DNA of 62,916 bases, counting the filler, from Sluysia triapertura (Eukaryota), in the NCBI GenBank assembly GCA_046118255.1. It is 4 parts of 4 records of this genome, joined end to end, with 100 filler letters (N's around TTAATTAATTAA, not from the genome) between each part and the next. Parts side by side here need not be neighbours in the genome. Positions count along the whole stretch, not along the records: positions 19,325 to 34,987 come from JBJNIA010222354.1; 3 more parts are not named here. One strand, 5' to 3'. The notes under the pieces were generated by a model. The model was not told the DNA's origin and searched no databases. It worked only from the letters and a program-made list of their open reading frames with translations. Of this stretch, positions 9,771 through 35,087 are shown piece after piece (position 1 is the first letter of the stretch; each line of letters begins with the position of its first letter). The translations under genes were made by a program, and so were the position numbers.

Positions 9771-9791
9771 CAAATAGTCATGTAATAATAA

Positions 9792-9870
9792 TGTTAGACT
9801 TCATAAAATGGACTGACGGGAGATCAAACCCGGGATTTATTGCTGCGCAGTTAGATGAATTTTAAACATT
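9792..9870 (-). mobile_element. 5'-truncated tRNA-like element, inverted relative to copy 2
   Basis: TGTTAGACTTCATAAAATGGACTGAC is the exact reverse complement of the 3' end of copy 2. Confidence 0.8.
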
Positions 9871-10796
9871 TATTTTAACAGTATGATAGGTTTTCCATAT
9901 GTAGTATAGATAATCAGATAACATATGTATATATAATGCGAAATTGTGATCACAAAAATGTTTGTTAAAGCTTGAGAAAATCAACAAATATTCTTAAAAC
10001 TGGCTAATGCGGCTGCCACTTGTGCTGCATAACGATAAATAGATAGACTTTGAGGATTACAGACATCATCATGCAAAAAATGTATAAAATAAGTGAATGA
10101 AATTGAAAGGAGAATATGATAAATTATAAAAATGTTAAACAAACGTAAATGGAAAAGAGAGTTAATGAAAATGAAACAAAATTTTTATTTTATTTTGAAA
10201 ATTACAAAAAAATAATAGAAGCACATAAAAGAAAAGAATGGTAAAATTTGAAATGGAGAATACAAATAGTGGAAAGTTGTTATCGTATTATAAATAAATA
10301 GAGAAAGTATTGCGATTGTTTTTTGTTTCATTTATTACAAAGCAGAGATAAAACACCCAAAAGAGGAAGAAAATAAAGAAAGAGTTTGTATTTCTCAAGA
10401 GAGAAATAGGAAACAAAACCTCCCAGGTATGTCTAAAGTAAAATTGGCATTAGAGATACCAAAAGGTAAGAAGTAAAAAAGGATAGCCCCAAGACAATAT
10501 GTACAGCATGAAATACGCACAGAGAAAAAGAGTACCCCAACAGTATACACTGGATTGGAAATTCCGCAGGTGAACAGTAAAATGAAAGCGATAAAAGGTG
10601 TACAGCACTCTGGATGGCTTATTACTTTTAATTATTAATAAATTATTAAAAATATTAAACTCTTTAATTAACTTATTCGACAAATTTACAAAACGTTAAA
10701 AACTTTAATTATTGAAAAACCAATTAACAATAGAAGCTTAAGGCCTTTAAACAAATAACAAAATAATAAAACAAAACCAATAAAATTTAAATCAAG

Positions 10797-11700
10797 TTAT
10801 TGAAACAATAAAACGTTTCTATAAAAATACATAACCGCAGTTAATAACAAAGGAATTACTGAAGCATGAGACACACTGTTATTACTTGTGGTTTCATAAT
10901 TTAACGAAAGGTATAATAATCGTTTTAAATTATATTTAAGAAAATTTGATTCCAATAACTCATCTAATATCGTTTTATTAATTTCTCTAGTTGACATTAA
11001 AATATCGTCAAGTGTTAATCCACGATTCAGTATTTTATGAACATGACGAAAATGAAATTGTCGACGTAACAAATAACCTATTAAATTGATGAAAGAAAAA
11101 TATTGATAAATAAACAATTGGAAACGACTTGTATAATCTAAATCATATTGGTTAAATGAAACTGAATGTTGTGGATAGTTTGAATAATTACCAATTTGTT
11201 CTGATTTATAATAACGTTTTAAAAATGCTGAACATGTAATTATTATTGTAACAGATAATAATCTAAATAAAAGGTTGATTATACTGTACCATGATGGTGA
11301 CGTTACTGTAAAGCAAAAAGTTCCAAATTCTCTAATTTTAGTCCAAATATTCAACATGATATCACATTTTGATCCCATATTTCATGGCATAATTAAGTCA
11401 AATACTGATGTTTTAATTATTTTTTGCCAAGACTATAAATTAATATTTATTCTTTATATTTATTTTTATAATTTCAGGTTTTGGTTGATGCAATCCGTGA
11501 TCCTGTTCTTTTAATATGTTTTGCAAATTTTGGTCTGAATGCTGTTAGTTCACCATTTATATACCTAAAATACTCCCTTTAGGCATTCTACAATACCAAT
11601 AACATCTTTTAAATGTCTAATATTTTTAAGCCATTTGAAAAATACTTAATTCTGTCATAATTGGATTCTATCTTTACAGATGCTATAGTCAATTAAACTC
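10797..11700 (-). pseudogene. Intronless decayed ORF of unknown family (193-aa open segment, hydrophobic C-terminus)
   Basis: ORF 10797..11378 plus upstream protein-like frames broken by stops; no recognisable domain. Confidence 0.35.
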
Positions 11701-11999
11701 AAATAGTGATCGTCAAAATAATTATCTGATTCAAATTTTGATTTACAATAAAATCTATATAAATATCACATTTATATAAAAAGTAGTTAAGGTAATAAGG
11801 CTGATACTACTATTTGAATCATTTGATTTGGGAGATGATAAATATCGATGCCGTTGTTTCTTTGGTATACTGGAATTCTCGCTATAATCCATTTAAGAAA
11901 TTGTTGTTCGTGCTGCTGGTGATAAGGAAAATGTTAATAATTGAACTATGGGGCCACAAGAATACCATTGATAAGTCAGAAAGAACAAAGAAGGATATT

Positions 12000-13079
12000 A
12001 AATCGCAATCATACCAATGATAAATCACAGACATACAATTAAGTGGATAAAATAAATAAATGAGAATGTATGAAAATAAAGAAGGGAAAAAATAAAAATA
12101 AAAGAATAGAAGAAAGAAATAACAACCATTAAATGCAAAATGAAAAGAAGGAAATGAAAATGAATATGTGAATATCAGTTGTTGAATAATATATTGATTA
12201 TTCCGCAAAAATCAAAAGATTAAAGATTAAAAGCCCCAAAGATAGAGGATAAACAAACGCATTAAAGTACCAAGATTAACAATATTATTTAATTGGGATA
12301 TTGGAGGGAATGGTCCTTGTAGATATTAAAAGAGAATTCAATGGAGAGTTTGATACACTGGCGTGCTAAACCAGTAATATCGGCCCTGTGGAAGCCTAGT
12401 TTTTTCAGAAGGATATCATTTTCAGGATCTCAAGATCCAAGTGCTCCAACGACAAATGTGTCAAGGGAAACCTGACATTTAAGTTGTACTTGGTGCTTTT
12501 CTCTCAGGTCGGAATATTTCGTAATATTGAAAGTTCGGGCCGCATTAAATTTCTCATAATCATCAATCGGCGACTTGACGTCAATGAGAAAAGGTTGAGA
12601 GGAATTGATACCTTCCGCTTGTAAATCAGGTCTTCGGTAGTCAGCAGTAAGGGGGTTTCACTTAGAAGCCCATTTGTTTAAGTTTACTAAACATTTAAGT
12701 TTAAGTAAACTTTCGAGAATCTTATTATGTCTGACTGTACGGCCCCTGATAGTTCGAAAGCAATGATATAATACGTGGGCAATTGTTTCCCGTTTAAAGC
12801 CACACCAGCGACATGTAATGAGGAGATGCAGCCGAATGTTTTGTGGAGAGAAATTAAGCTTAAGAATAGCCTTAATCATAAAAATCCAACTCTGGTTATT
12901 TAACTGTAAAGAAAACGGGCGACCAGATAGAGGACTTTTCAAGAAGCATTCGACAAAGCATTTTCAAATGTTGATATTGGAAATGTTAATCAGTTCATGA
13001 AGATATTTACCTACTTTCTCTTTATGAAACCGATTTAATATGACTTCGTTTTCACGAAGGATGTTGCATCTGATATTTA
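12000..13079 (-). mobile_element. NeSL/Utopia-type (R2 group) non-LTR retrotransposon 3' part: CCHC knuckle, RLE endonuclease and 3' UTR
   Basis: CRWCGFKRETIAHVLYHC...RHNKIL, then RRPDLQ...FLIDVKSPIDDYEKFNAARTFNITKYSDL...FVVGALGS*DPENDILL (PD..D..K restriction-like endonuclease). Confidence 0.9.
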
Positions 13080-15542
13080 TGCAGTAATAGTATGTTTAAG
13101 TTGTTATAATTTATAATGAATGATATATTAATGTTCTTTATTAATAAAGTTGATCAATTTTTATAAATAAATATTATTAAAAGATAAAAAGTACTATTAA
13201 ATTTACGTTTTACCAAAAAATTTATTACAAAGAATTTCTTATAATCTAAAAATACATAAAAATAAGAACTAGAACTAGTTATTTCGACTATTTTTAAGTA
13301 AAAAGCATATATTTTTGTATAAAGTTTATACATTTCCTGAATATGCCAAGAATTGTTTTCACTTGTTACTCTAAAGAAATACAAGTATAAAAATTGCTTT
13401 ACGTGAATCTTTTTGAGTAACTGGATCAAATGGAATTATTGCCAAACTCGATAAGATAGCACTTATTCGATGATAGTGTTAGTTGAAATCTGCTGCATAA
13501 CTGAGACTATCTTTGAATTCAAAGAATCTGTGACTATTGACACTTTTTACTATATTTCGAACATTCACCAGTTGATGTAGTTTCATATAAATAAATAGCA
13601 TGCTTGTAGCGTTTGTCTTCATTAAGATAAGATTTATATGGAAAGGTTTATTTCCAATATAAAAACACTTAAAATGGCAGGTTTTTGATTTGTAATTTGA
13701 ACAGTCTGCCCTGAAAGATGTTTATTTGTTTTTCATGACAAATGAATCAACATCTATCAATTCATAAGCCGTCAGAAATGCATTAGTAGGTAATTGTATA
13801 ACTTGGTCATCGATTGTTATAATTAATCTAGGAATACTTTTCTTTTAAAGAGCAAACATGATTTAAACTTGATAATATGACCTTATTATTACTTTTACTA
13901 ATCATAATGGATTCTTTACGCTGAAGTGCATGTAATCCTTCAGTCAATCTTCTTGTACTAATATTTTCTATGTTGGCTAATCTAACAGATTTCATTAATT
14001 TCTAAATTCGAAATGTTAATAACTTTTGGTAGTATTACATATAATTCATGAGACATAATAGTTGAAACTAAATTTTTGTTTGTAATTACTAGATAATTAT
14101 TCTGGTCTTTAAAATATTGTAATAAATCACGTCCATTTTTACATCTACCATCTTTTATTTGTTTACTGTAACCAGAATAAACGACACAATCGAATCTTTT
14201 TCACTAAAGTCGAATATCTTGTTTCTATAAACATATATGGATGACATATATAATGGAAAACTAAATGTTTTATTCATATAGATTGTTGGATTGCAGTTAT
14301 CATAATTATATCTTAAATCAACCGATTTATCTAATGTGAGCATAAAAAATTGTTTTTCGAATTATATTTGTGAATTAAAAAAATAACTTTTAATCGCTAG
14401 ATAATTTTAAATCAACACCTTTTTTATCACTGTGAGCAGTAAATTGTAATTGTCTTTTTTAGCTTTTATTTTGAGAGTTGTAAAAAATACGTTAATAGAT
14501 GTTTGTATAACTATACACCTGCAATTGTGAAGTGATTATAGAAGAAAAATTGCTTATGAATGGGCGTCCAATCAAATGAGAGAAAATATTATCCAAAAGT
14601 GGAATTGATTTGACGTCCAATTGGCAAAATTTTCACCCAGTAACTGTCATCAGTCGACAGTTAATACGACACACTGATTCAATTTAAATTAACTGTCGGT
14701 TGATGACAGATTAGAATAATTGGATTGCTACAACATTAATGATGACGACAATGGTAGTGTAATTAATATAATGAATAATTAGAATAAAATTACTAATAAA
14801 TAAAATTAATAATAACTACATAAATAAATCTTTCTTAAAATAACTTTGCCTTTACATGATCTTTCTTTATAAAACTCTTTTTCTAAACAAATAAAATTCT
14901 TTAAAATGCTTTATTATGTGAAAATAAAATTCTTTTAACTTAATGCCTTAAAATAAAATCATTTTACGTTGTTTTCTTACTAGATTATGTAAATACTCTA
15001 AAATTGTTTCAAAGTGTTGCTTTAATGTTTTACGGTGATATTAGACATTGAATGTTAAAGGATTGTAAGCTTGAAATGTTTTGGATTGATTTTAAGACCT
15101 ATATTTGATAGTTTAAGATGTAAAATATAATTCTGATGTTATGAAATTGTGAATTAAAATGTTTTGAATAAATTTTATTGTACGTTAATGGTTCTGAATG
15201 TTAGTAAAGTTTGGATATTGAAAGATTGTAAATTTAAAATATTTTGACGTATGAAAAATGATTTTAGTGGATCTGAAAGAAATAAAATATGAAAAGGTTT
15301 TGATAGAAAAATAGGTAAAATGTTATGCTTTTATGCGCGATATTTTAAATTAAATTTGGGATGTTTTGAATTAATTTTTTAAGTATATCTTTGATAAATT
15401 TCGATGTTGAGTATGATCTTGATGCTCTGAAATTTTATGTTTATAATGTTGGAAAGTATTAAGAATTATAAAATATTCTAAAGAATTATTTTGTTGTGTC
15501 ATGATGAAATAAAATTTTTAAAGTAATGGGTTGGCCACCACA
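13080..15542 (-). mobile_element. Gene-carrying non-autonomous element (type copy), 2463 bp, TG...CA ends, 5-bp TSD ATTTA
   Basis: ATTTA at 13075-13079 and 15543-15547. Ends are TGCAGTAATAG...GGTTGGCCACCACA. Removing it rejoins the NeSL frame as ...EDQIKLN|IRCNILRENE. Twin hairpins at 14562-14618 and 14644-14709; cargo ~13150-14343. Confidence 0.85.
13154..14343 (-). pseudogene. Decayed intronless cargo ORF, unknown family
   Basis: ATG at 14343 lies ~220 bp downstream of the twin hairpins. Protein-like frames with several stops run to ~13154. AATAAA on the minus strand ~57 nt before the element end. Confidence 0.45.
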
Positions 15543-17640
15543 ATTTAATTTTATTTGGTCCTCACAGTAAAAGAAGCTAGCAGAAATTCGGTATTTCCGG
15601 CGCAAATTGAGGACAGATTGTCGAATTTTGGTCCACAGTGTCAGAAGTCGTGAACGCTTATCGGTTTACTGTTATTCAGCTAAGATAGATCATCAAAAAT
15701 TTTCATGACTTTATTTAATCTATCATTGGCGACGCGAAGAATTTCATGCAATGCAAGGGTAAGAACAATGTTTGTTCAACTGTTAAATAGGCGGAAGGCG
15801 CAAATTATATTCTGGCACATATAGTCATCATAAGAAGAAATCAGGCTTAAACCGCCATGTTTTTTGTGGGCATAAAAGAAAGAATTGTTTAAATGGAAGC
15901 TTTTCAATCCTACGAAGCCTTTGAATATATAGTTTATTTTTTCGTCATATCCAACAGAATGGGGAAGGTTTTTGGATTGTCTAGCGTGAGGACTACTAAG
16001 GGTTTGGGAATTAATATTTAGATGGCTAAAGTGAAATGGAAGGCGCGATAGAATAAAGTTGCGAAACATAAGAAATTTGGCAGCAGTATTGGAAATACTA
16101 TTGAAAATACTATTGGAAATACTATTGAAAATACTATTGGAAATACTATTGGAAATACCAGCAGTTACCATATTATTGGAAAGAGAAACCAGACTATCGA
16201 AAAGAAGGGAGCAGGAGCACTTAACAATGACTTGATTATGCTTCTTAAGTTTGTGACGCTTAAGGCTACTGCAATCATTGGGATTAAGTTTGTGAGTAAT
16301 CCCACAGGAAGTACACCAAGCATTGGTGTACAGGTTCTGGGTATAAGGGATAGGACAGTGACTTTTTTCCCCGCATCACGAATGTCACTATTAAGGACGT
16401 TAGTGTGTTCAATGTGAGTCATGGTAAATTCTTTTCATGTCTTGATTGCTCCACATGTGCATTTTACTTTAAGATTACTCAAGATTGTTGTGAACTGGTG
16501 TTTAGTAGTAAAATGCCTACGGACTTCCTTGAAATCAGAGCGGTTCTTAATAGTAAGACCCTTCATATTTCAGTCAATTAGAGAGAATTTAATGTATCTC
16601 TTAGGAGAAATTATGATGTGAGCATTATCGTACAACTTATTGCAAGAAGTTAAAGAAATATAGATGGTATAATCATCAAGATCAGTACCATTTTCGATGG
16701 CTGAAGTAACAGAGGATTCAGAAGAGACAATGTTAGGAGTCGTGGAGATAGATTCATTGTGGAGACTAAGAATTTCATAGGTTTCAGAGGGTGCAAGAGA
16801 AATTGTTTGAGGCGGAATATTAATAGGATCAACAATGGTAGCGATAGGAGGACGTTCAGAGGTAGAAATAGTTGGATCGTTGTCAGTGGGCATTACAGGA
16901 GACCTGTCGTTCAAGATCGATGGATTAGCAGCAGTAGTAGTTACGTTATTAGAAGGGATTATAAGGGTACTGAAGTAGGAAGTAGCATTATTATTGACAT
17001 TAGGGTTAGGAATGGCTACCTCAGTGACGGCCGGAATTGCCACAGGAGTCTTAGAATATACTTCAGCACTAGAGAATGTAGGTAAGTCACTAATAGGAGG
17101 GATAAGTCGAGGTTCCATTGCATTCAATTTTATGCAGAAGAATGTATCCCCATCAATGGTAATTATCATATTACTGGTGGATAAACCCTTTGTTAAGTAG
17201 GCTATAGTTGAGGGTACCACCACAGCAGGGTTAATAATAGGAGCCAGTGTGACTTGTACCCAAATGGTTTTTTCCAGTCAATTTTTTGGAAAATAACTAT
17301 ACGTCCATTGTTTTTCCTATGTCCAGAGAATTTAGGATACGATATTTTAACAGTTGTAGTCTTCGGGGAAGCAGAATCCTTACTACTTATGTTATTAATA
17401 TGGTTAGAAGGCTTAGTTTCAGAAGTTGTCGCTTTGGTATTCCTGGGTACCCTTGGGATTAGGGAGTTAGCCGTCCGAGGTTCCGAGACTTTAATACTTG
17501 TCCATTTAGGAATCACGAGTTTGTTCAATGTTGGCACAGTCTTCGTGGGGGCAGTACTGATATGTTTAACAGTGTTGTGTTTATTGCTTTGTTTACTGAT
17601 ATCCATCTTTATCGAACGCTTTAAAAATCGCAGGGATTAC
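15543..17640 (-). mobile_element. NeSL/Utopia-type non-LTR element, 5' region fused to RT C-terminal/thumb region (internally deleted)
   Basis: S/T/P-rich N-terminal ORFs (17202..17606, 16570..17223) and a Cys/His-bearing segment (RRHFTTKH...KCTCGA...THIEH). Then FRNFILSRLPFHFSHLNINSQTLSSPHA...FFYAHKKHGGLSL, which matches the end of the RT fragment at 31878-32387. Collinear with 12000-13079. Confidence 0.8.
16087..16158. repeat. 6 x 12-bp tandem repeat TATTG(G/A)AAATAC
   Basis: Directly visible; sits at the NeSL internal-deletion junction. Confidence 0.9.
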
Positions 17641-17848
17641 ACAACATAAATGTTAAAACTTATGTAAACTTATTTTGTTTTGATGTTATTGCTGAAGAAA
17701 AAGATTCAATGAGTGTTATCCACAACTCAATTGAAACCAGCATTCCTATAGCAAGAAGTTCCGCACTAATTTGTCAATTAATACTGTTGTCGCTTTTTTC
17801 TGGATTGTTATTGTGATTTTATGTAAAATATCAGCTCTTTTTATAGTA

Positions 17849-18014
17849 TCCAAATAATTGTCAGATAGTCGGAAATTCAATTCAATTATTTTGCATGTCT
17901 ACTGCATATGTTATTTTCTTAGAATCGATCTTATGCCGACTCATTACTAAAATGGAATTTCAATATTAATTTCCAATGAATTTCCGACTATAGATTGCCT
18001 GACAATTATCTGGA
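17849..18014. mobile_element. MITE with ~30-bp terminal inverted repeats
   Basis: TCCAAATAATTGTCAG-ATAGTCGGAAATTCA versus TGAATTTCCGACTAT(8-bp indel)CTGACAATTATCTGGA. Confidence 0.6.
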
Positions 18015-19055
18015 GATAATGAGTTTTGTGAAGAACGAACCCATATCTCTTTAAAAGAATATAATCATAATTTTAATATCATAATTGGTATTATACAAAC
18101 AGATATAAAAATACATCATACTAATTTACTTATATTTATAATCTAGTATAAAACTTTTTTTAATAACAATACTTTATATCATACGCAACACGTTAACAGT
18201 ACGTCACACGTCAGTCCCAATAGCGCATACTGACTTGTTTCTTTACAAGCTTTAATTTGATATATACTTTATTAATGCTCGGACATTGGAACGTATTTAA
18301 TCTTTAATTTTAAATTACAAAATTAATTAAAATAACTAATTTTACGTTATTTGCGTTGATGTGCTTCGTAACACTTAATTACCAAAACTAATAATAAAAC
18401 TCAACATTATATACTAAATTTGATATCATTATATTATGAGCAAATATTTTTATTGAGTTATCAAATTAAATAATTATTAATTAAATTAATTAAAAAATGT
18501 ACTTTAACACTTCGACAAACAAAACCTCGAAAGGTTATTTCTTCGTATTTCTCATTATCTTATCTTGATTCAAGTACTTCTTAAACTTATCTTATCATTA
18601 CAAGTCCCCTATTTCCATTCCTCAATAACGTTTACCTTATCTGTCATCCTGAATCTTGAACCTTTATACCTACCTTTGCTTTTCACTAATCCCAACATAA
18701 ACTACTAAATAACTTTAGGACCTTAATAAAGCATTTAAACATAAAGTAAGATTAAGTCTAAAAATAGATTAATTAATTAAAATCTTAATTAATGGTATGT
18801 TAAATTTGAAACTATGTATGTATTTGTTTCAAAAAAGACCTTTCAATGAAAATTTGCAAGAAAAATGTTAATAGTGAGCAAAGTCAAATTTTAATTAATT
18901 CTTAATTATGAAATGTTGCACTTTTGTACATAGAATAATGAAAGTGTAATGATTTGATTATGAGATGGTTGATATGAAAAAGGAAATTATAGAAGTGAGT
19001 TTAAAATAACTGTAGAGTGGTTTGTTTGAGAATAAGAACCTTACATATATTCCAT

Positions 19056-19224
19056 TGTAGTGGCCAACTCCGTAACGCAAAATTTAAAATAACTCAATTA
19101 AAATAAAATTCATCACAATCACCCTCTGCAACTACAATCACCACACAAATCACCACACAAATCACCACACAAAATAACAATACCCACAACTACAATCTTA
19201 ACATCTCACCAAACTACATCCAAC
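19056..19224 (+). mobile_element. Terminus of the cargo-element family (TGTAGTGGCCAACTC) with a 12-bp tandem repeat, cut by a gap
   Basis: Same terminal motif as 15542, 24048, 29766 and 55905; about three copies of AATCACCACACA. Confidence 0.65.
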
Positions 19225-19324
19225 NNNNNNNNNNNNNNNNNNNNNNNNNNNNNNNNNNNNNNNNNNNNTTAATTAATTAANNNNNNNNNNNNNNNNNNNN
19301 NNNNNNNNNNNNNNNNNNNNNNNN
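19225..19324. other. Assembly gap with artificial TTAATTAATTAA linker (also 34988-35087 and 47147-47246); plain N gaps at 54958-55107 and 58430-58557
   Basis: Identical 44N + 12 bp + 44N layout at three sites. Confidence 0.95.
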
Positions 19325-21227
19325 TTTTATATGCTTATCCCACTATTACAGTTCATCATAATACCTTGTCTTAGTTCTTTAATAACGTTCAACTTATTCT
19401 GCTATCCTATGTTTTAACCCTTATATCAACCCTTATCCTTCACTAATCCCAACACGATTAATACCGATTTACAACATATTTTGAATAATCACACATTTGT
19501 GTGTTGAAGCATATATAAAAACAAAAGAAAATATTACAAATAAATTGTAATAAAATGATGATGATAATAATAATAAAAATAAAATCGCAATGTTACGTCT
19601 TTGTATTCAATAATAATAGCAAATTAATACCAGTTAATTTATTTAACTGAACCTCAATAATTAATTACTAAATTCAATATAAAATCATCACAAATTTCCC
19701 TTGGCCTATAATGTTATTTATTCCGCCCAAAGATTATAAGCTTTTAAAATAAAATAACAACAATTCAATAATTTAATGATTAAAAAATCAAATACAAATT
19801 ACTGTTATAAGCTTTTACTAAACAACAGTAAAATAATTAAAACTATAGCATTAATGATAATGTTTATAATAATATCAGAGATATGGCAGTCTAAGTGAAG
19901 GAACGCAAAAAACACTAATAATGTCAATCTGGTAAGTTAAATAATAATACTGCTTACTTATTTCCAAATAATCTTAACCAAACTTAATATCGGTTAAATA
20001 TTATATATATAAAGATAATAATTATCATTATATTTTCAACATAATCACCCAAAAAGGTAAAATCTATTAAAATTAACTTTCAGTTAAGTGTTTTCCCAAT
20101 GTCGGTATGATTGGGTGATTGTATGCTTGTGTTAAAAAAATTTAGAAATTTTTATTTTACACTCTCTTCATCCAATCAATACCCAGTCTCACAACCAAAC
20201 ACTCTCTCACACAAATCACCCAAACCTCTCTGAGAATCAAACCGACAATAACAACTTTGAAAATTACATGGTACAATCTGTCAAAATTTATTAAGTATAA
20301 AACATAGAAATCTGATTTATTATCAACCATCATTCAATCTATTTTTACTTAAATTACTTCTCACATTAAAATTACAATCAACACTATTGTTAACATACAT
20401 AAAGATAATGAATTTAATTTCACTTTTTATTATTTAATTAATTTTTGATTTTCACACCAAATTTTCTAATGAAAAATGTTAAAGGTTCTTATTCTCAAAC
20501 GAACCTCACTTATAGATTCTCCTCTTTCATAGCAATCATCTCATATTCCATTCATTACATTTGCATCACTATAAGTATAAAAAATTCAATATTCCATAAT
20601 TAAAAATCAACTAAAATTTGACTTTGCTCAATATATAAAGGATTTCCTTGCCTGAACTCGGTCAAACTATATCTTAATCGAAATGTCTTTTCAAAACAAA
20701 TACATACATAGTTTCAAATTCAACTTATCATGCCGCATTCAAAAGTTATTCACAAAAACGTACTTTTTCTTAATTAAGCTAATTAAGATTTTTAATTAAT
20801 TAATCTATTTTTAGACTGAATCTTATTCAATGTTTAAAGGTTTTATTGAGGTTTTAAAGTCTTTTAGTAGTTTATAAGGCATTCAAGAGGCTCTAAATGT
20901 TTTCACCTTCACCTCTCTGATTTTTTTCTTGTTCTTCAAGTTTATTATTGCCACTTTAAACTTATCTTTATTATGTTGAACAAAGATTTTATTTCTCCAA
21001 CATTTTGAAGATTTTATATACTTTATAATATTACTCGAATATCTTTGATGCTTATTAAGGTTCCCAGAATAGAGTCTTAGATGATTTCAAAATTAACAAG
21101 CTCAATGGTGTTCTAATACCTTCAAAGGTTTTTCAAGATCTCAACACCTTATTATATGGTCTTTGGAATGTCAAAGTATTCTTTTAGCTGTTAAAATTAC
21201 CATAAATGCTTTAATTTTACAACTATC

Positions 21228-24048
21228 TTTGGTAATGTTATGTTATAGTATATTAAATTAAAATGATACCAATTTAGTAGTTTTGTGTTAATTATCTTAG
21301 GCCGATATATTAATGTTTTAAAAGTTATTTTTAAATGATACAAATTTAACAATGTTTGTAAATAAATTATTGAATTTAGTTTAGAAGAACTTAATTGATT
21401 AATAAATCTTTTAATCTTGGCGTCAAATTTTATATAAACTTTATTCGTATTATTGATTCTAAATTCGATATAAATAATACATTTAAAACTTTTACATAAT
21501 TTGATCATGGTCAAGTTACAGAAATAAATTAACAAGACGTTAAGAAATATAAATTTTGTATTTAATATTAGGACAAAAAGTGTAAATTTTATTATTATAT
21601 CTCCACGTACATCATTTGGCCTTCCCCAAAAGTTATCATATTGTTAAGATACTGCACAGCTCGTGAATTCCGCGCCAGTATGTCTTGATATTGAAACCAC
21701 GAATAATCGGTGGAATTAATTTTATTAGAATGGACTTCTATATTATTTTTTAATAAATAAAATTCTAATTTTTGTTATATCATACTTTGACAATCTTAAC
21801 ATGCGCTCTGTAAAAATATTATACAATTCGCTAGTAGTGAAATGGTTGCTGTCTCTGATATTACTCTTACAATTAACCATACAAAGGTTTATACAATTAT
21901 TACTAAAACCATCAATATAATCAGTAATTTTATTCATTTTATCTTTTTTAAATCTTTTATAGACGATATTTCTTTTATAATTCAAAATATTTGATAAATC
22001 TAATAATTTAGGGTTATCTATGAGAATTCTATCAATTAAGGTAAACATAGTTTCAAAAATGATGCTATCGTTAACAGGATATATAAGGCAATTCATCACA
22101 TGATGAGCAAATTCTCTACGAACATTTATTTCATATTTAATATCTAATACAAATAGGATAAGTGATCACGAAATATTATTAATTTATTAATAAAAGCTGC
22201 AAAATAATTGAATGAAAATGTATCATGTAATCCAGCATTGTCTTGAGCTACAAATTTTAAATTGTCGTTACAATGAACAGTCGTAAAAATGTTAAATGAA
22301 ATAACCACATTCTCTTCATTACAGCTGTAGCGTTTCAAAAACTCGATTAAGATCATCATGAATTTATCAACATTATTCGTTTACTTTTTCTCTTTCAGCA
22401 TAATATCTAAACGTAATTGAAAATAGAAAAATATAATATAATTCATTAAAACATTAACTCCCAGTGGCGGAACTAATTCTTTAAAAAATAATAAACGCTT
22501 ACTATAAGTGTGCATTGAATTCGATGATTCTAAACTATAAATTTGAAATAAACTTTTTATCCATTCTAACAGTGGAACTAAGTAACCTGAATAGTGTACG
22601 CGAATTGGATCGATTCGGTCTGTAGACTCAAAGTTGAAACATTTCACTTTTACATATAAATTACTGATCATTAAACTAAATAATTTGTTGTTGTCACTTG
22701 ATACCGGAGACAACTTCATAAGGATATAAAATGTTTGACACATAGAATCATATAAAATTCCACGCAATTTATTAATTTCATTTACCTTTAACTTTATACG
22801 ATCATCATTATAAGTACTGTTGATTTGATAACAAATTTTATCAGTTGTAGATGAAATTTTGTACTGTATATTCATCCCTACACAAGGTACTTAGTGAGGC
22901 TGTGCAGAAATAATCTTGGACATGTCTACAAAAAACGAATTACGGATCCAATTTTCTGTATTAATTTCAAACGGACGAATAGATTGCACTTGAGTATACT
23001 TCATATCAATGTGATCTAATTTTTCTACTTTGTAAATTTTTATAATTGTGATTTTTGTTGGAATTATGAGATATTTTGTGAGACATAAATTCTTTTTCAA
23101 ATCACATTAATGATTGGTTATCCAACCAAATCGTGTATATGATGTCTAGACATACACGTTTTTGGTTTGATAATCAATATATAGTCGTTATTAAGTGATG
23201 ATTTAGCCAACTATTATGGCCGCCATCATCATCGGTGACAGTCAAATTTAAATGTTTTACGAAATGTCATCGATTCTAATGGCGGTGACAATATTGGTTG
23301 GAACTGGCATTTTTTATTTATTTAATAATTATTATTGTTGTTATTATTATTGAAATTATTATTGTTAATATCAATTTATTACAAATTAATTAAAGAACAC
23401 ATACATTCTTCCTGTCTTTACTTTTCTTTAAACTTCTAAACATATTTTGGATTGAAATAAAATAGAAAATGATAGAATTGAATGTAATAATAACAATAAT
23501 AGGATGAACAATTTTATCGTTATTGCTGTTATTACATTGCATAAGCTTTTGGATTCTTTAAAAACTGAACACGAACTTGCTATTTAATACCATAAATTTC
23601 TGAACATATTTAAACTAGAAATATTTAAGCAAAGATTGGTTTAAGTAGATGTGAAAGAGATAATTTATAGTCCACTCTTGGTATATTAGAAAGTTGATTG
23701 TACAGAATTGCTACTATGATTGTTTTCTTGCTGTTTTTAAGTGGTATTGTCTTTTGTGTTATTAGTTATTATCTGATAACAATTGATGAATTTAAGTTAT
23801 TGTAATTGATTCGAATGTGATTATTATTTGGTTATTATGAATGTGAAGTAGAATATTTTTGATGGATTTGTTACTGTAAATCGGTGGTATTGAATGTAAT
23901 TGTGATTTGTAAGTTGTGAAATTGTGGGTATGAATTGATTTTAGTAGATAAACTGTTTTGTGAGTAAAGTAAAGTAATGTGTGGATATTAATGTGTTGAA
24001 GAATTATTTTTGTATGAAATTTAATATTATTAAAGGTTGACCACCACA
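21228..24048 (-). mobile_element. Gene-carrying element, 2821 bp, 5-bp TSD CTATC
   Basis: CTATC at 21223-21227 and 24049-24053. Right end is GGTTGACCACCACA. Left end TTTGGTAATGTTATGTT resembles TGCAGTAATAGTATGTT at 13080. Hairpins at 23113-23178 and 23220-23285. Leader homologous to 36570-37360. Confidence 0.8.
21560..23100 (-). pseudogene. Decayed intronless cargo ORF chain, unknown family
   Basis: Consecutive minus-strand ORFs 22891..23100, 22381..22875, 22144..22359 and 21743..22099 start immediately after the hairpins. Confidence 0.5.
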
Positions 24049-24917
24049 CTATCATTTCAACGCTGCCTACAACGCTCAATTCATCACTTGGTATCAGTTC
24101 TTTCTTCATTTTATAGTTCCTCAGGCATTTTCTGATGAAATAATAACAATATGAATAATTATAATTTATATTTATTTCAATAAGATCTTCTGACTGCTGT
24201 CTGTTGGACTTGAGAAACACAGAAAAGTACGATATAATTTGTCAGCAAAGTAAATTGAGTGCTAACTGATTTCAAAGAAAATAAAAGACATATTTTAAGA
24301 TAATTTGCAGGAGTAGTAATGTTATGGAAAGTCATTTCACCTTGTTTAATTTAGATTGGATTTTTAAATATATCAATTTGGAATGCGTAATTTTTCGATT
24401 CGGACTCACTACGGACACAATAAATTCAAAATGTGGTTCTGCATGTTTTATCATTAAAGCATATTCATTTGAAACTCGATAAAAATTGTAAAGAAATTAA
24501 TTAAACTTGCATTATTATCCGCCTTGTTAATGTAGGGTTTTTCGATGAATTAAATAAAGTATGAGAAAATAATTAAATTAATTAAATTAAATAATTAAAT
24601 TAAATAAATTAAACTAAAAAATAAAAATATCGTTTAAAAAATTTAAAAATTAGACAATCTATGTGTCATTTCCATATAACAAGAATGTAAACTGCGAAAC
24701 CACAAACAACGATCAAACTACCATCCATAAGGGAACAGTAAACTCTTCCATAATCATTACACCGAGCACAAGAAAAATCACTGTCGTGCCATGTCTGTAA
24801 ATACGTTATTTGCCATTGATATAAATCATTAATGATCGATTGAATTATGTATTTTCAATGTTTTATTCAATAATTACTAAATGTGTTAATTACTGAATTC
24901 TCACTTAATTGATCGTG

Positions 24918-24981
24918 CTTCATTGATGCTCCTTCATCGATCCTCCTTCATTGATCCTCCTTCATTGATGCTCCTTCATCG
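24918..24981. repeat. ~4.5 x 14-bp tandem repeat CTTCAT(T/C)GAT(G/C)CTC
   Basis: Directly visible, immediately upstream of the CCAAT-type hairpin at 25005-25066. Confidence 0.85.
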
Positions 24982-25274
24982 TTTTATTCTATACTAACAC
25001 TTTTACTGGCTGGCCAACAAAAATTTTTAGTACTTCCTCAATGCCTGTTTTGATTGGTCGACCAGTCACACTGCACAGTTAACATCTAATCCAGCAAGGT
25101 AAAAATAAATAACTAATATAGACTAGTCTCAATTAAGAACACGGCAGCAAAAAATATCGAATAAAAATATAATTTTTATTGAATTTTATTAGAATAAATT
25201 TTTTAAAATATTTTTTCTTGGTCATAAAAATTATCAAAGCTTTCATAAATTGTACAATATTAAATAATTAGTAG

Positions 25275-25560
25275 ATGTCTGATGACACTGACACATAATA
25301 CTATGAAACAGGAGATGATTATTATTTTGACGATGATTATAAAGCCGATGAACCTAAAACAGATACTTCATGAAGAACTACAAACTGCCAATGTGGAAAT
25401 AATGTTAAATAAAGTTACAGATGAATTGGCAAATAGAATTAATGTTTCTTTTATTATCGCTAAAATGCTACTTATACAATATAAATCGTCATTAAATAAA
25501 ATTAGTCTCGATATATCTAATAATCCGTACAACGTTTTGTTTAAAGCTCGCATATTATCT
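25275..25560 (+). pseudogene. Ariadne-2 (ARIH2-like RBR E3 ligase) N-terminal fragment
   Basis: Acidic start MSDDTDT*YYETGDDYYFDDD, then after a frameshift LQTANVEIMLNKVTDELANRINVSFIIAKMLLIQYKSSLNKISLDISNNPYNVLFKARIL. This resembles the ARIH2 UBA-like region (L..VS...AK..L....W.........N....L..AR). Confidence 0.65.
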
Positions 25561-25689
25561 AATGATATCAAAGTTCTTTATAAATGTCAAAAAATGCAAA
25601 ATAACATTATATGGCCTTCTTATGCATCATGTTTCGAAAAGATCAATAACAGTTTGGAATTATTGTCTACGAACAACATGGGTAAATTA

Positions 25690-26110
25690 AAATCGTTAAA
25701 ATCACTTCAGCTTCGACAACGTGCTACACCAATTGCTATCAGACATAAAGATATCATTGGTTTATCTGAAACCTGAAGTGCGTAAACTTATAACAACCAA
25801 CCTCTGACGTACATAAAGATTTTGATTCCTACAATTGAATTGAGAAAGTTGCGTGTAGTAAATTGATGGAGAAAAGTAAAAGATTAAATCTAATAATAAT
25901 TCGTTAACTGAAGATACAGATATAACTGATTAATTTACAGTATTTAGAATTTTTCATGCCGACATTGTTGTAGCAACTTCTAGTCGAATTTTAATTATGC
26001 CTCATCACACTAATCAGATTAAAGAAATTTTTTATTCCATTCAATATTTAGTAAATTATGATGTAGATAAAATGTTAAGTTCTCAATTATTTTAAGACAT
26101 GGTGAAAGAT
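25690..26110 (+). pseudogene. DEAD-box RNA helicase N-terminal RecA-domain fragment
   Basis: RQRATPIAIRHKDIIGLSET*SA*T (Q-motif plus Walker A), ILIPTIELRK (Ia), ADIVVATSSRIL (Ib) and QYLVNYDVDKMLS (motif II), in the correct order and without introns. Confidence 0.8.
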
Positions 26111-29100
26111 TCACGAATTATATCAACAATAACAAGAAGAAAAATAAAAGGAATTTTAAACAAATATAAATTTATTCTACAAAATGCTATGACCAAATCG
26201 AAAAGAAGTTCGGATTTCTGTTACATGTTCCACAATTTGTTAATGTCGAACCAGTAAGTAATTTTCTAACATGGGTAAAGTTTTATATCTGTGTTATGCC
26301 AAATGATGTTGCAGAAAGAAATACATATAGAATATCATACGAAACATTAATACATTTTAGTACAGAATCTAACTGTACAAAATTAGACTTTGAAGATATG
26401 GAATCGTCAATCAGTATTAGTAATCCCAATATTCCACAATCTAAAACCCCAATCAAGAATTTCAAATCCAGGCATCATAATTCGATTCAAAGACGGCATT
26501 ATGCCCATATGAGATTACGCAATCTGGTAATTGTCAAAAGTACGGTATTAATTGTAAATACATGCACTCTGTTGAAGAGCTCAAAGAAATAGAAATTGCC
26601 TTGGCAGTTAACAACATTCATCTCAATCGTATAAAAATCGATAGACATTTTTGTTCTAGCACAACTTCTATCAACAACGTCGCTCGCAGTACTCACCAAT
26701 GATGTCAAAAAACTACAATCCGATAAACCCATATCAGCTGAAATCAAAGTAATTTACAAATATGATTATGATGATAATGATTTAATTATATTTTTTGTTT
26801 AGTTAGTGAAACCTGGTCCAGTGGAAGACATGTCCAAAATTTAATCTTTATTAACGTTAACATTTTTAGTTGTAACATTATGAATAAATTTTTCTTTGTG
26901 TACAAATCATTGTTCATTTTCAATTATCTTAAAATCTTGTATTTCGAAATAATAATAACAAAATATAAATTTAATTTTCAATTTTGTAATAAAAAATTAA
27001 ATTTTTAATTATCTCAATTGTATTTCTTAACTTTAACAACATTAAAACCTTATACCCAGGGTTGACACAACACGGTAAATGATGATGCCCTTATTTAACA
27101 ATAATAAAATAATAAAAACACAAATCACTAACCGCAATAATAGTCGCATTACTTATAAAGATGTGTCAATTGCTAAAGATAAATCCTCAATTACAATGTT
27201 TACCAAAAATGTGTTGATGCAACTCTCTTAATTGAAATAAAGCTCGGTATTTTAAATATTTTGTCTTGTCCAGCAATCTTGTTCTGATTTCATCACAAAA
27301 ATGCAATCGTTTATATAGTAGTTGGGCAATTACTTAGGAGATTAAAAATCTGAAAATGGAAATAATTACTTGATATAAGTATTCATTCATTTTGGTCAGT
27401 CAATTTAATAATTAAATTTTAAAAGTAATTTCCGTCGGCTTCCAATTTTATTATCTACTGTATTTTGCGATTAACAATCTGATCAACATAACTGAATCAA
27501 ATTTAATATCATTATTACACTAATATTTTGTTATTAACATATGTCAACTTAAAATAAACATAAGAAACACATACCAAATTTAATCTCTATAGAAAGTTTT
27601 TATACCATATGTTGCTTTAGTGTTAATATTATGACACAATAATTATCTAAAGATTAAAAGTTATTAAGATAAAAGTTATTATGAAAGTTCACGTCATTTA
27701 CAGAAATATTAATTATATTTTCACATGAAAACATAATTAATGATAAAGAGAGAAGAAAGTCAAAAAGACTTACTTCTAGACCCATAATTTTATTGTTCGG
27801 GAACTCAAATTGTTTCTCGTCATCGTCTACAACCAAATAATAATATACAGTATTAGGCCACGAATCATCTTATATCGCTTCGCCAAATTTCACCATAGAA
27901 TTAGAACATCATACATAAACCATTGCAACTAATGAGATTATAAACTTATCCTTTGTTACCGGAACTAACTTTATAAACTGGCTCATTAACATGTATAGAT
28001 TTAGCCGTGGGAGTATTAATAAAATAATCATTTGGTGCAAATGTTAAAATACTTTTAAATCTAGATTTAACATCATCAAATTCATCGACATCGAAACTAA
28101 CTAAAGATTGTAGTAAACACTTGTTCTGTTGAGTGGTTACTAAAAATATTGGTATAGAAATTTTGAATATATATGATTAAGTTCGTGTGCTGCTTAAACA
28201 ATGAGTGTAAGTCATAGTTTATACGCTGCTGGCATAATGGTTGTCTTTTAAATCATACTTCTTCTCTACTTCTAATTTTCATCTCTAACATGCTCATTCA
28301 ATCTATCAACATAACTCAGCACATCATCAAATTTTTCTATTAAAGAATTCAAGCTTCGATTCTGTTCAGCATTGTCGTTACTTTCCGTTGTTGGTAAAAT
28401 AAGAGTAAACGCCATGCTTTCTATTATGTTGTATACGAATGAAGATTGCGCCGGACTAATAAATTTGCAAGATTTATATATTATTTTTTAAAAAGGCAAC
28501 TTTTTATGTTGACGTAAAATAAATTTAATTTTATAAAATTTTATTATTGTTATTAGTATTATAATTATTATTATTAAGAATTATTATTATTATTATTATT
28601 AAATTATTATCGTTATTATTATGAATAGACTCGTCTGAATTTTTATAGACAAAATTAGACTTATTTATATCATTTTTCTCTAAGAATTCATCATTTATAA
28701 ACGTATATGGACTACTTATTGCAGATGAATGACGAACACTGCTTTGATGGATCGAATAAATACGATTTGATTGATTTACGTCATTTGCAGAATCAGAAAT
28801 TACTCTTGATAAATTATCATTATAAAATTAAATATTAATTTCTTATTGGAGATGTAGCCACAAAAGCTTGTAATCCATATCAGCTGTATTTTTTAGGTAC
28901 GTTTCTAATAAATGGCAAAGTTTACTGCAAATAAATTCATCGAATATTACGAGAACATAAATCTTAAGAAAAAATGTTATTTCCTATCCCTCGATGATTT
29001 AAATTTGCCTTTCTTTATTGTCTAAGCAATTTGGAGATGGAAATGTTTTTTTACAAAATCAATGACATGATCCAAGTTTAAACCGATGTGATCTTCTGAT

Positions 29101-29142
29101 ATTGGAGTGGTTGCTTTCTTTGAATTGATGATCCATAGTATT

Positions 29143-29292
29143 TCATTTATTATCAGTCAATTTTCTTCTTGTTTTTTCTCTTTCGTATTGAAGAATTAAT
29201 TCTGTTTTATCCTTCTTCAACATTTCTGACTTTTCTACTAATTAGTCTCTATTAGTATACAACTTGTCAATTATTTCCGTCGAATGTTTCAT
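29143..29292 (-). pseudogene. JIP3/JIP4 (UNC-16/Sunday driver) RH1-domain fragment
   Basis: MKHSTEIIDKLYTNRD*LVEKSEMLKKDKTELILQYEREKTRRKLTDNK; L..QYEREK..RK is the JIP3/4 RH1 signature. Confidence 0.65.
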
Positions 29293-29299
29293 TCTAATC

Positions 29300-29534
29300 T
29301 CGGGTACGAGTATTACAAAAATTTGAGTTAGAAAGGCAAGAGATATAAATGTTAAGAAGAAATGAGAGTCATAAAGGAGAATTGAGAGGAATTGAAGTTG
29401 AATTATAAAAATTTTATTTTCTTTTTGTAGATTAATTTTAAATTTGAATTTATTGAAATTTAATATATTAAATGGTTTAGGTATTGTGTGGTTGTAAAGT
29501 ATTGAAATTTTGAGTAATGAGTTTGGTCACCACA
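29300..29534 (-). mobile_element. Short-leader terminus of the cargo family, directly upstream of the JIP3 fragment
   Basis: Ends GAGTTTGGTCACCACA. Similar short leader at 52140-52374 (GGTTGAACAACCACA). Other end not identified. Confidence 0.6.
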
Positions 29535-29765: not shown

Positions 29766-31046
29766 TGTGGTGGTCCACCCTACACCTACCTATATATCAC
29801 ATCAGTCATAACATTCATCCACACAAAAAATTACATTATAACAAGTCTTATCTACATCAATTATAACATTACAACACTCATCCTTATAAAATCTCAAATG
29901 CCTAATAAAATCCTTTTTACTAACACCTCATCAAAATAAATCACAGTGCATTGTCACTTTGCCATCATTATGATACAATATCTTTTTATCTGTATATTAT
30001 AACCATTTTAGTTTATATTTCTATATATTTTATAATTTTCTAATAATTTCCTTTTCGCAAAAAATTATGTAGTAATAAGCAAATGAAAAGAACAAGGAGA
30101 AGGCTTGAATGAAATTGAAGAGTTAAAAAGTCAAACTAAAGGAATTCTTAATAAAATGGTAACTCAAAATTTTGATCACCGTCTTGAAAATTTAGTTAAA
30201 TTAAAAATTGGAATTCAGGAAGGAATGAAATATTTTAAAAGCAATAAAAGAAGAAGTTTATTGTGTCATTTTTGCAAAAATTTGTTTATATTTAGTAAGT
30301 AATAAAGCAGATGTGTCAGAAAGTGAAATTGTTTTAATTATGTAAAATTTTAAAAAATCTTAAAAGAGACAATAAAGAATTGTTACCATATTGATCTAAA
30401 TTACAATATTGCTCTAAATCACTAGTAATAAAACGTGACATTAAGCTTTGAAAGAAAATTTCCTTTTTTGTTTATTAAATCAATTATAAAGGATGTAAAA
30501 ATTGATAGAACTGATCCAAGGTTGTTATTGATATGCAAGTTTATTAAAGAACCCTTAGTAATTAGTCTAATGTTTATCGGAAAGACAAGAACCCATATGT
30601 GGGATTACCAAGGAATCCCTAACAATTGGGAAGGAAGCAGTTACCTTTCGAATGGTTTTTAGAAGCTCAATTCCAATCATCCAAAAAACGAACCATTGTA
30701 TCTGTAATATATTTTTATAATAACTGTCTCGATTTTGCATACATGTGTAGAACGTTTTCAAGTTAAAGATTTTTATATTTCTAAGCCTTCTTATGGTGAT
30801 TATCATCATTTAAATGAATTCGTAAATTTGATTTGTGTCGTAAAGAGAAACACTAAGGAAGATATAAGTATTGGTTTAGAGAAGTTAGATAATTCGATCT
30901 TGAAATTTACGTATCGAATAAAAAGTTTACAGCGCAATCAAAACGCGATTTCGTATTATTCTAGGTCGAGTTTGAAATCGAATAGCTATGATAACTTTTT
31001 GAAATAATTGTTTATAGTATAAATTTGAAATTAATCTTGCAACACA
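29766..31046 (+). mobile_element. Gene-carrying element, 1281 bp, 5-bp TSD CACCA
   Basis: CACCA at 29761-29765 and 31047-31051. Starts TGTGGTGGTCCACC and ends TTGCAACACA. A ~300-bp A/C-rich leader precedes coding remnants; no twin hairpins seen. Confidence 0.75.
30083..30560 (+). pseudogene. eIF4G-like MIF4G-domain fragment
   Basis: EELKSQTKGILNKMVTQNFDHRLENLVKLKI matches the MIF4G start (..ILNKLT..NF..L); a later ICKFIKE resembles IKFIGEL. Followed by an unrelated coding remnant (30570-31007). Confidence 0.6.
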
Positions 31047-31877: not shown

Positions 31878-32390
31878 TCACCTTCTCGTCATATCCGGTA
31901 GTGTGAGCCATGTTGCGCGATTGTCGGCATGTGGGCTACTTAAGGTTTGTACATTAAGGTTTCGCAGGTGAAATGAAAGTCGGGATTTGATGAAATTTCT
32001 ATGAATTATAAATATGTTGTAATAGTAGCATTTCGAGGAGCGAAATATCAGATTAACCGATCTTGCTTTTTCTACCAGTATGTGTAGCTTTCTCTGGAGG
32101 TTCTCAATCCTAGTGTCAATCAGAGCGATATCATCGGCGTAGGCAAGATATGGAGGAAATTTCAAATCGGAAGAGAGAATAATGTCATGAACGATGGACA
32201 CCCCCTGTTTCACGCCGGATGTAATTGGTATTGGATCGGTAATCACATCATTGCATTTATATGTTGTGGTCGAGTTTTGGTACAGATCCTTTAATGTGTT
32301 TAGAGTTACCGAATGAAGCTCCATACATGATAATGTGTGCCATATGAGGTTGTGAGGCACCGAGCCAAATGCATTAGCCAAGTCCAAAAA
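31878..32390 (-). mobile_element. NeSL/Utopia-type reverse-transcriptase fragment
   Basis: DLANAFGSVPH...DLYQNSTT...IPITSGVKQG...LAYADDIAL, with internal deletions. Confidence 0.9.
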
Positions 32391-32410
32391 ATTATAGACC
32401 CGATTGTTTA

Positions 32411-33580
32411 TTGGACTTTAATATGCAATGGCTCTTAACTAGACAGCTACATATTAATAGAACACAAAAATTAATCATAAATGCGTTTAAATTAGCTAAA
32501 ACTAGTAATGCGTTTTGGAATTTATTACAAACTGTTGGTCGAGATGAAATTATATTACATTTACATATTGGTGAAATAAAAATAATTCAACAAAATGTGG
32601 AAAGACTTACTGATATAGCTAAACCTTATGATGTAAAATCGTTATTGAAAGCATGTGAAAACTTCATAATGAGTAATATTAATATTGATAATTGTTGGGA
32701 TTATTGGAAACTAGCTAAGAAACTTAATTTATCAATTATGTCAATTTATTTATTTTAAGTTAATTTGTATACGCTTGAAAATTTTTCTGAAATATCTAAA
32801 AACATTGAATTTTTAATGGTGGATTATGAATAATTGAAAAAATTTCTGTGTGATGATAAAATTAACATTCAAAATGAAATTATTTTATTTTAAGCTATTA
32901 TTAAATGGATTGAAAATGACTTGAAAAATCGTGAAATACATTTAATTTTTTTACTTAACTGTTTGAGATTAGCTAGATTAATTTTAAATGAAATAAATTT
33001 AATTAAAAAAATTAATATAGTTAAAAATATGCCAAATTCTTCAAAAATGACTTTGGTATTAGCTAAGAGTTAAATTTTACACAATAAGCATAGTATGCGT
33101 ATTTTACCTTCATCATTTAAGTAGACCGCATTTACCACATCAGCGTATTTTAGTTTTTGGTTGAGGTATATTTTGTTCACCCTATCGTAAAATCAAAGTT
33201 TCTAATAATCGTGATGAGACTTGGTCAATTTTGCGGCCAATTTTTGAAACAGTCGTAGTAGATGATTGTCTTTACATGCTTATTGGACTATGTGAAAAGT
33301 TTTTACCAACACCATCCTTATTTAAGTTTTCACTGCATAATCTTCAATGGTCACCATCAGCATCTGCAGTTTTAAGCAATCAAGTATATGCTATTGGAGG
33401 ACATCGTGAAGGTTGGGAAACTTTATCCAGCATGGAAAGATATAATAATAAAACAAATACATATAATAATAAAATAAAAGATATAATAATAAAACAAATA
33501 TGTAGCACCATTATTATTTAAATGCAATTTCTCATCTGCAGCTATTCTTGATAATAAGATATATGTATGTGGTGAAAAAC
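32411..33580 (+). pseudogene. Intronless BTB-BACK-Kelch (KLHL10-like) pseudogene
   Basis: NVERLTDIAKPYDVKSLLKACENFIMSNINIDNCWDYWKLA (BTB/BACK); FLCDDKINIQNEIILF*AIIKWIEND (BACK); VLSNQVYAIGGHREGWETLSSMERY and SAAILDNKIYVCG (Kelch). Multiple stops and frameshifts. Confidence 0.85.
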
Positions 33581-33849
33581 CAGTATTCGAAAAAATAAAT
33601 TCTAAAAATATAGTTAGTAATCATTCAATAACTTTGTTCATTAGCGTTATTATTATTTTTCTAAATGTTACGTTGAAAAATAAATTCAACCTTTGTTATG
33701 TGTTTAAGTTGTTGTTTACAAAAGTCCTAAGCCTACTTTATTAATTGTTTTAAAGTTAAATTTAAATTGTTTTTTGTTAAGTTAATTTTTTAACTTTTTT
33801 AATAAAAATTTAAAAACAAAATTTAATGTTTCAAATAATTGCTACAAAA

Positions 33850-34987: not shown

Positions 34988-35087
34988 NNNNNNNNNNNNN
35001 NNNNNNNNNNNNNNNNNNNNNNNNNNNNNNNTTAATTAATTAANNNNNNNNNNNNNNNNNNNNNNNNNNNNNNNNNNNNNNNNNNNN

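Follow-up and report, generated by a model that had tools for sequence, protein, structure and literature searches.

A precisely inserted, hairpin-bearing repeat with a gene cargo in Sluysia triapertura, possibly a solo long terminal repeat

Giant Gypsy retrotransposons are known from AT-rich flatworm genomes; their long terminal repeats (LTRs) are multi-kilobase, and they have host-like accessory domains (PMC6431247; articles cited here by PMC number were available in part, and statements drawn from them refer to those parts). The nearest described system is Burro, a giant planarian Gypsy element of the GYPSM1 type. Its internal region reaches 25 kb within a total length of more than 30 kb, and it has host-like regulatory domains and upstream accessory open reading frames (ORFs) (PMC6431247). 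Here we describe an element, E2, found in a stretch of 62,916 nucleotides from Sluysia triapertura (assembly GCA_046118255.1; four parts joined end to end, hereafter the window), within the part taken from JBJNIA010222354.1. The class to which E2 belongs is like Burro in its AT-rich animal genome and, if its units are LTRs, in the multi-kilobase LTRs that the lengths given for Burro imply, a likeness by description only. It differs in the placing of host-like sequence: Burro holds its host-like domains in the polyprotein, a gag-env-pol with BIR, BCL2 and MATH domains, or in internal ORFs (PMC6431247), whereas the gene of the E2 class would lie inside the LTR. No full-length parent of the class was seen.

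Two further systems resemble E2 in part. LTR-mediated retrocopies (Tan et al. 2016; maize Bs1) acquire pieces of host mRNA by template switching and are amplified as non-autonomous elements, with the captured gene between segments of an LTR retrotransposon; E2 is one unit without paired repeats (PMC5131818). Foamy virus LTRs are long and carry in U3 a microRNA (miRNA) cluster of stem-loops of precursor size, with a dumbbell pair (PMC3993851). This second likeness is an analogy only, with no sequence relation and no Rfam family at threshold for the E2 hairpins. The available parts of five articles on giant Gypsy elements make no mention of a gene or a hairpin pair inside an LTR (PMC6431247, PMC11410931, PMC8532177, PMC13465017, PMC13238120). 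Likewise, a search of the literature by title and start of abstract returned no gene-bearing solo LTR with the layout of E2; Repbase and Dfam were not covered, and the families may be catalogued there.

Read on the minus strand, E2 runs from its TGTGGTGG end through a C-rich leader, an AT-rich tract and two strong hairpins to a broken reading frame and an AT-rich tail. Its features, in that order after the element and its flanks, are as follows.

21228–24048, minus strand: whole element, 2821 bp; neither inverted nor direct repeats at its ends; sequence of this strand TGTGGTGG ... ATTACCAAA
21223–21227, plus strand: left copy of the target-site duplication (TSD), CTATC, exact match, at the empty-site joints
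24049–24053, plus strand: right copy of the TSD, CTATC, exact match
24035–24048, minus strand: conserved end TGTGGTGGTCAACC, common to at least seven other places in the window; no mismatch to the CsRN1-clade 5' motif TGTGGYG
23410–24034, minus strand: C-rich leader with a GC skew of -0.38 as read on this strand; identity to 36560–37360 about 70%
23305–23405, no strand assigned: AT-rich tract with (ATT)n, found too in 36380–36540 and 4800–4860
23220–23286, no strand assigned: hairpin 2, stem of about 22 bp, similar in size to a miRNA precursor; counterparts at 14644–14709, 36284–36347, 54862–54934 and 4884–4948
23113–23178, no strand assigned: hairpin 1, stem of about 24 bp; counterparts at 14561–14620, 36176–36239, 54764–54819 and 25002–25070
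21746–23106, minus strand: cargo, a broken reading frame, no relative found
22796–23057, no strand assigned: least-shared segment, beside hairpin 1; summed contig depth 50–106 against 470–1760 over the remaining cargo
21469–21577, no strand assigned: distal conserved block, common to 35120–35228 in a second member (E3, below); far-side limit of the variable module
21228–21244, minus strand: second end motif, with AA rather than CA at the minus-strand end, seen too in the members whose ends are near 6867 and at 27123

The preliminary description of this stretch took E2 for a complete element with a perfect CTATC TSD, and the exact coordinates confirm this; the end motifs that it quoted are present at both ends. 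An identical 5-mer at the spacing of the TSD occurs at 177 of 59342 window positions (0.3%). Independent evidence comes from contigs of run X1 placed on 20700–24600. Seven of these contigs skip E2 by a joint from 21218 to 24048, three by a joint from 21218 to 24052 and two by one from 21218 to 24066. All leave a single CTATC between the two sides, as expected where related copies of the flanking repeat have an empty site. Because these sites keep one CTATC, the insertion and its 5-bp duplication are real. Within the window itself no empty site is visible, the two related copies of the host repeat being too diverged (59–64%). A 7-bp TSD was considered for E2 and dropped, since two other members (E1 and E6) and the empty sites indicate 5 bp.

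The repeat that E2 interrupts lies at 18004–21227, 24049–24120 and 48800–51860 and occurs as long inverted subunits. Its summed contig depth in run X1 exceeds 1,000,000 at 20700–20830, against about 17–23 in unique flank.

E2 is not alone. The feature is real and more general than first noted: it is one of an abundant class in which ends and hairpins are conserved, leader, hairpin pair and cargo keep one order, and the gene cargos differ but share an orientation. Searches by motif, TSD and hairpin bring the count in the window to at least eight members, 1.3–3.5 kb long, four of which have perfect 5-bp TSDs (E1, E2, E6 and E12).

13080–15542, minus strand: E1; TG..CA ends; perfect ATTTA TSD; inside a non-LTR retrotransposon
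29766–31046, plus strand: E6, a short member; TG..CA ends; perfect CACCA TSD
24782–27123, plus strand: E12; ATCAC TSD; hairpin 1; CCCH-finger cargo
35088–37363, minus strand: E3, the closest relative of E2; an N-linker cuts its cargo end and another repeat its leader end; 302-aa open frame, no relatives found
52399–55905, minus strand: E4; TGTA..TACA ends; no perfect TSD; cargo with a CSRNP_N match
about 4210–6867, plus strand: E9; degenerate start; no TSD found; hairpin 2; CCCH-finger cargo
27650–29534, no strand assigned: E5, a probable further member; end motif at 29534, other end not found; weak NAP match in cargo
Ends opposite the TGTGGTGG end: ...ATTACTGCA or ...ATTACCAAA

The TSD of E12 is a single match, near chance level alone, and is supported by the alignment of the ends of E9 and E12. 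E12 has a 14-bp tandem repeat (24904–24981) in the position of hairpin 2. The count leaves out a truncated member starting at 19056, which is cut by an N-linker and lacks a cargo. Its leader holds a short tandem unit containing CACCACAC (19113–19175) that resembles U3 enhancer repeats. Candidate end motifs at 17224, 38209 and 47617 have no supporting leader or TSD and were dropped.

What kind of element inserts in this way? The hallmark of a retroviral-type integrase at work on the ends of LTRs is a 5-bp duplication together with TG-type ends and no terminal inverted repeat (TIR), and when two LTRs recombine with each other one unit remains between the TSD copies. The ends and TSD of E2 point to such an integrase. 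One unit between 5-bp duplications is seen in E2 and in three further members. The ends are TG..CA in E1, E4 and E6 and TG with AA in E2 and E12. In the five members with both ends, terminal complementarity is only 1–4 bp (6–13 of the terminal 30 positions are complementary), and all five lack a direct repeat between the ends or an internal repeat pair. Transposons with TIRs and paired short LTRs are thereby excluded.

The same facts bear on a different origin, in which E2 would be a complete, non-autonomous 'Pack'-type DNA element, moved as a unit by an integrase-like DDE transposase of the Ginger or GingerRoot type after host DNA was picked up between its ends. Ginger-type elements have TG..CA-type ends and short TSDs, and both GingerRoot and Pack-MULEs contain captured gene fragments (PMC6839031); the variable length of the members (1.3–3.5 kb) and the absence of any paired copy in the window would suit such an origin. 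These systems differ in having TIRs, TSDs of 4 or 6 bp (6 bp in GingerRoot) and cargo with introns (PMC6839031), whereas TIRs are missing from the E2 class. Nor would capture of DNA fix the orientation of the cargo or produce a strand-skewed leader. On the strand that reads from leader through hairpins to cargo, the open frame is longer and stops are fewer in all eight members with cargo. It was their frames that first drew attention to three of these; for the remaining five, orientation came from the end motif alone, and all five agree. All four cargos with a Pfam match lie on this strand as well. We consider a Pack-type origin decidedly unlikely.

We prefer to read E2 as a solo LTR derived from a large retrotransposon of the Gypsy type, and its cargo as an accessory gene within that LTR, captured long ago and amplified with the family. 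We put the probability of this reading at roughly one half; both the class and the transcribed strand are inferred. A retroviral-type integrase would have inserted a full-length element, and its two LTRs would then have recombined with loss of gag-pol, so that a single one stayed between the TSD copies. This LTR would be read from its TGTGGTGG end, so that the C-rich leader would be the U3 region with its promoter. The hairpins would be RNA elements of the transcript, either in a 5' leader or as precursors of small RNAs. The cargo would be a cellular or element gene acquired by template switching during reverse transcription, a process that could give different families different genes between conserved flanks. 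LTR-mediated capture of mRNA by template switching is documented in animals (PMC5131818). A decayed Gypsy pol fragment at about 150–1200 shows that Gypsy elements occur here, though it is unlinked to any member. Retroelements in the window have a C-rich skew on their sense strand, as the leader does.

CsRn1 makes a 4-bp TSD, against 5 bp in the E2 class. Among six published Metaviridae integrase motif pairs, each taken in two orientations, the best fit to the ends is the CsRN1 pair (TGTGGYG...MSYYAMA) in the sense of the ORFs, with a mismatch fraction of 0.19; the next best is 0.27. The 5' motif has at most one mismatch in each of the five members, and the 3' motif permits the AA end seen in E2, E9 and E12 (PMC3601003). 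CsRN1 differs from the E2 class in its short LTRs, which average 330 bp in the training set against 1.3–3.5 kb, and in a 3' motif that matches loosely.

Several points weigh against a solo LTR read from this end. The motif fit was made post hoc, and at the 3' end it is loose, with 1–3 mismatches in 7. No copy in the window adjoins a primer-binding site, a polypurine tract or gag-pol, the complete members being flanked by their TSDs only. Nor does the window contain a direct-repeat pair around gag-pol. A TGG after the end of E6 was considered as a primer-binding site and rejected, as it belongs to the TSD of E6. Published training sets of animal Metaviridae LTRs average 174–695 bp, far shorter than E2, and documented captured genes sit between two LTRs, not within one (PMC5131818). 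Parent genes of the cargos were not found, and loss of introns from the cargos is thus putative. Finally, both polarities of the U3-R-U5 layout can be read in the sequence, and an AT-rich tract followed by GT-rich DNA, the usual arrangement of poly(A) signal and U5, speaks for the other strand. So do the hairpins: taken together, nine of them have 20 G-U pairs when read opposite to the ORFs and 7 when read with them. This skew favours an RNA structure on the strand opposite the ORFs, although strand-biased mutation could also cause it.

These last observations lead to a solo LTR of opposite polarity, which we regard as unlikely. Here the gene would lie antisense in U3 behind an antisense promoter, the hairpins would lie in R, the AT-rich tract would act as poly(A) signal, and the 700 bp rich in G/T would form a U5 ending in CCACCACA. 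Six of the nine hairpins fold better on that strand (two fold worse and one equally well), and AATAAA followed by a GT-rich stretch is a conserved LTR layout (PMC3601003). Template switching, however, would yield sense cargo, and with this polarity every cargo would be antisense. In addition, the best motif fit in this direction is worse (0.27 against 0.19), and the 5' end would begin with TT in three members.

The hairpins themselves are well supported. Both hairpins of E2 have z-scores of -4.3 to -4.8 on either strand, none of 200 shuffles being equally stable, and both energies fall beyond the lowest 0.5% of 12377 sampled windows. Hairpin 1 stays paired across five members, although 6 of its 13 consensus pairs have changed on both sides, a level reached by 3 of 500 shuffles; since the structure was derived from the same sequences, this covariation is moderate support. 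Hairpin 2 aligns poorly across members and shows two-sided changes in 3 of 9 pairs. A covariance model of hairpin 1 matched only its five training members, with nothing new at E < 0.1. In the window no Rfam family reached its gathering score, the sub-threshold shape matches scoring 23 and 20 bits where 110 and 90 are needed.

That a hairpin pair is kept by two-sided changes while the remainder of the element diverges would also suit a self-standing retro-cassette: a non-autonomous unit without paired LTRs, transcribed whole, reverse transcribed with the aid of its hairpins and inserted by a borrowed Gypsy integrase. All four complete members are single units between TSD copies, and members are dense, at least eight in 63 kb. 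Solo LTRs, on the other hand, explain single units without a new mechanism, and we know of no way of priming that could complete a linear cDNA at its two ends in the absence of a terminal repeat. A retro-cassette of this kind seems improbable to us.

If E2 is a solo LTR that captured a gene, where does its resemblance to other members stop? The preliminary description reported a leader match between E2 and E3, and it holds: the leader aligns with 36470–37356 in two blocks at 70–72% identity (z = 72 against local shuffles). Homology continues through both hairpins to about 23093 and weakly to 23026, and the open frames beyond are unrelated. The stretch that cannot be aligned extends over about 21580–23060 in E2 and 35230–36120 in E3. 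The distal conserved block follows, with a score of 62, the best of 220 real-sequence tiles (the next is 46). Because homology between E2 and E3 resumes beyond the cargo, the variable module has a limit at either side.

The earlier proposal, of a conserved chassis whose cargo is exchanged just downstream of the hairpins, survives in part. E2 and E3 do keep their flanks around unrelated frames, and the cargos of E1, E2, E3 and E4 have no mutual protein match (tblastn, E < 0.01), as first described. What the proposal did not foresee is that homology resumes past the cargo and that the cargo of E2 is multi-copy. The architecture was also said to be that of E1. End motifs of 14–17 nt, hairpin motifs and strand skew are indeed common to E2, E1 and E4, but the chassis cannot be aligned: only E3 aligns in sequence with E2, and the last 1300 bp of E2 give z-scores of 2.6 and 4.2 against E1 and E4. 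Because E1 and E4 are unalignable with E2 over their whole length, an exchange point cannot be placed for them, and their differing cargo may reflect old divergence of families instead. A break just downstream of the hairpin pair does not hold as a general rule. E9 and E12 share the CCCH-finger end of the cargo and the tail and not the upstream frame; the cargos are therefore mosaic, with breaks that are not confined to the hairpins.

Perhaps nothing was exchanged, and the cargos are one ancestral accessory gene that evolved so fast as to be beyond recognition. The modules of E2 and E3 do lie between the same flanks, and the best protein alignment between them scores 67 against a shuffle maximum of 58. 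This weak match, however, lies in the conserved DNA block, outside the main frames. Flanks that are 70% identical enclose frames that share nothing at E < 0.01, and other cargos match unrelated Pfam families (CSRNP_N, zf-CCCH_UNK and NAP). We think this very improbable.

The Pfam matches differ in strength. The CSRNP_N match of E4 rises from 26.6 to 29.4 bits when the frame is extended (cut-off 27) and continues in one frame, as would be expected for an intron-free copy; the 166-aa frame of E4 has no relative among six candidates, all proteins of near-equal length. The zf-CCCH_UNK matches in E9 and E12 have E values of about 1e-8, and the NAP match in E5, with E = 0.001, is below cut-off.

The cargo of E2 consists of pieces of 71 aa (22894–23106), 169 aa (22384–22890) and 78 aa (22147–22380) in one frame, split by stop codons, and of a 140-aa piece in another frame (21746–22165). 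Summed contig depth in run X1, which by the tool's own caution is not a copy number, is about 17–23 in unique flank and 470–1760 over most of the cargo, tens of times the single-copy level; in the final 340 bp of the leader it reaches 8000–12000, the highest of the element. The cargo is thus multi-copy; sharing is wider at the leader end and lowest in the stretch next to the hairpins. Since the depth of the cargo is tens of times single-copy, the cargo was amplified with its family and was not swapped once at this locus.

Searches for relatives of the cargo were negative. The 169-aa frame had none among 16 candidates from a set of 5.8 billion (near-length proteins only), and a 321-residue frame with X at the stops gave no match against 1.84 billion representatives. 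Six cargo frames matched nothing in Pfam at E ≤ 0.1; an AEP-like match at E = 0.12 was treated as noise. Viral contigs contained no relative of the E2 or E3 frames. Single-sequence folds, with a mean pLDDT (predicted local distance difference test) of 35.4 for the E2 frame and 32.5 for that of E3, were uninformative. Judged by the cargos of other members, this one is likely to be a lineage-specific accessory gene, of the host or of the element, that is now decaying. The cargo of this copy is decayed and probably non-functional.

The surroundings are those of an AT-rich animal genome: the window has about 26% GC, with scattered exons, short interspersed elements (SINEs) and decayed retroelements. 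Composition and repeat types may hint at a planarian flatworm. Three identical 100-base spacers, runs of N flanking a short stop-codon linker, lie at 19225–19324, 34988–35087 and 47147–47246. They look like joins of separate contigs. E3 and the member that starts at 19056 are both interrupted by such a spacer, and adjacency across the spacers is unreliable. Decayed pieces of non-LTR retrotransposons on the minus strand (12430–17650, 31878–32417 and 33900–34980) match a reverse transcriptase (Pfam RVT_1) and an Ulp1-type protease; they resemble the NeSL/R2 group, and E1 sits inside one of them. The decayed Gypsy-type pol fragment mentioned above is on the plus strand, matches RNase H and an integrase zinc finger, and lies 3 kb upstream of E9 on the same strand.

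Three copies of a tRNA-derived SINE family, 69–72% identical, are found at 3490–3656, 9590–9820 and 38366–38540; the second has a tail inversely duplicated over 29 bp (9742–9820). A decayed, intron-free copy of a BTB-Kelch-like gene (32378–33744, plus strand) adjoins a reverse transcriptase fragment. Host exons on the plus strand resemble Omp85/SAM50 (37640–38779) and encode a PDZ domain (44676–47070). Searches with the SAM50-like exon revealed no close relative: one yielded none among 120 candidates, and another three loci at 42–49%, which were set aside. A remnant of a Pogo/Tigger-like DNA transposon at 40881–42300 contains a DDE_1 match (41715–41933) and a strong hairpin (40881–40960).

Solo LTRs are usually non-coding leftovers. 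If the members are only decayed solo LTRs of known giant families, their value lies in annotation. A broader meaning is possible, and we offer it tentatively as a doubtful but consequential idea. Integrase-inserted expression cassettes may be a dominant class in this lineage, each combining a promoter, a conserved pair of hairpins like those of small RNAs and a host regulator gene that lacks introns and can be exchanged (CSRNP/Axud1, nucleosome-assembly, CCCH RNA-binding and unknown proteins). LTRs or LTR-less retro-cassettes would then have spread host regulators across the genome in thousands. If multi-kilobase LTRs do carry a gene and hairpins of their own, each recombination would leave behind a complete expression cassette, and each family would deliver a different host-like regulator. 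Giant flatworm retrotransposons are reported to have co-opted host regulators (cited in PMC13465017); what has been described for the polyprotein would then apply to the terminal repeat as well. At a density of at least eight members per 63 kb, such elements would rank among the major ways in which genes are duplicated in this genome, and they might also supply small RNAs.

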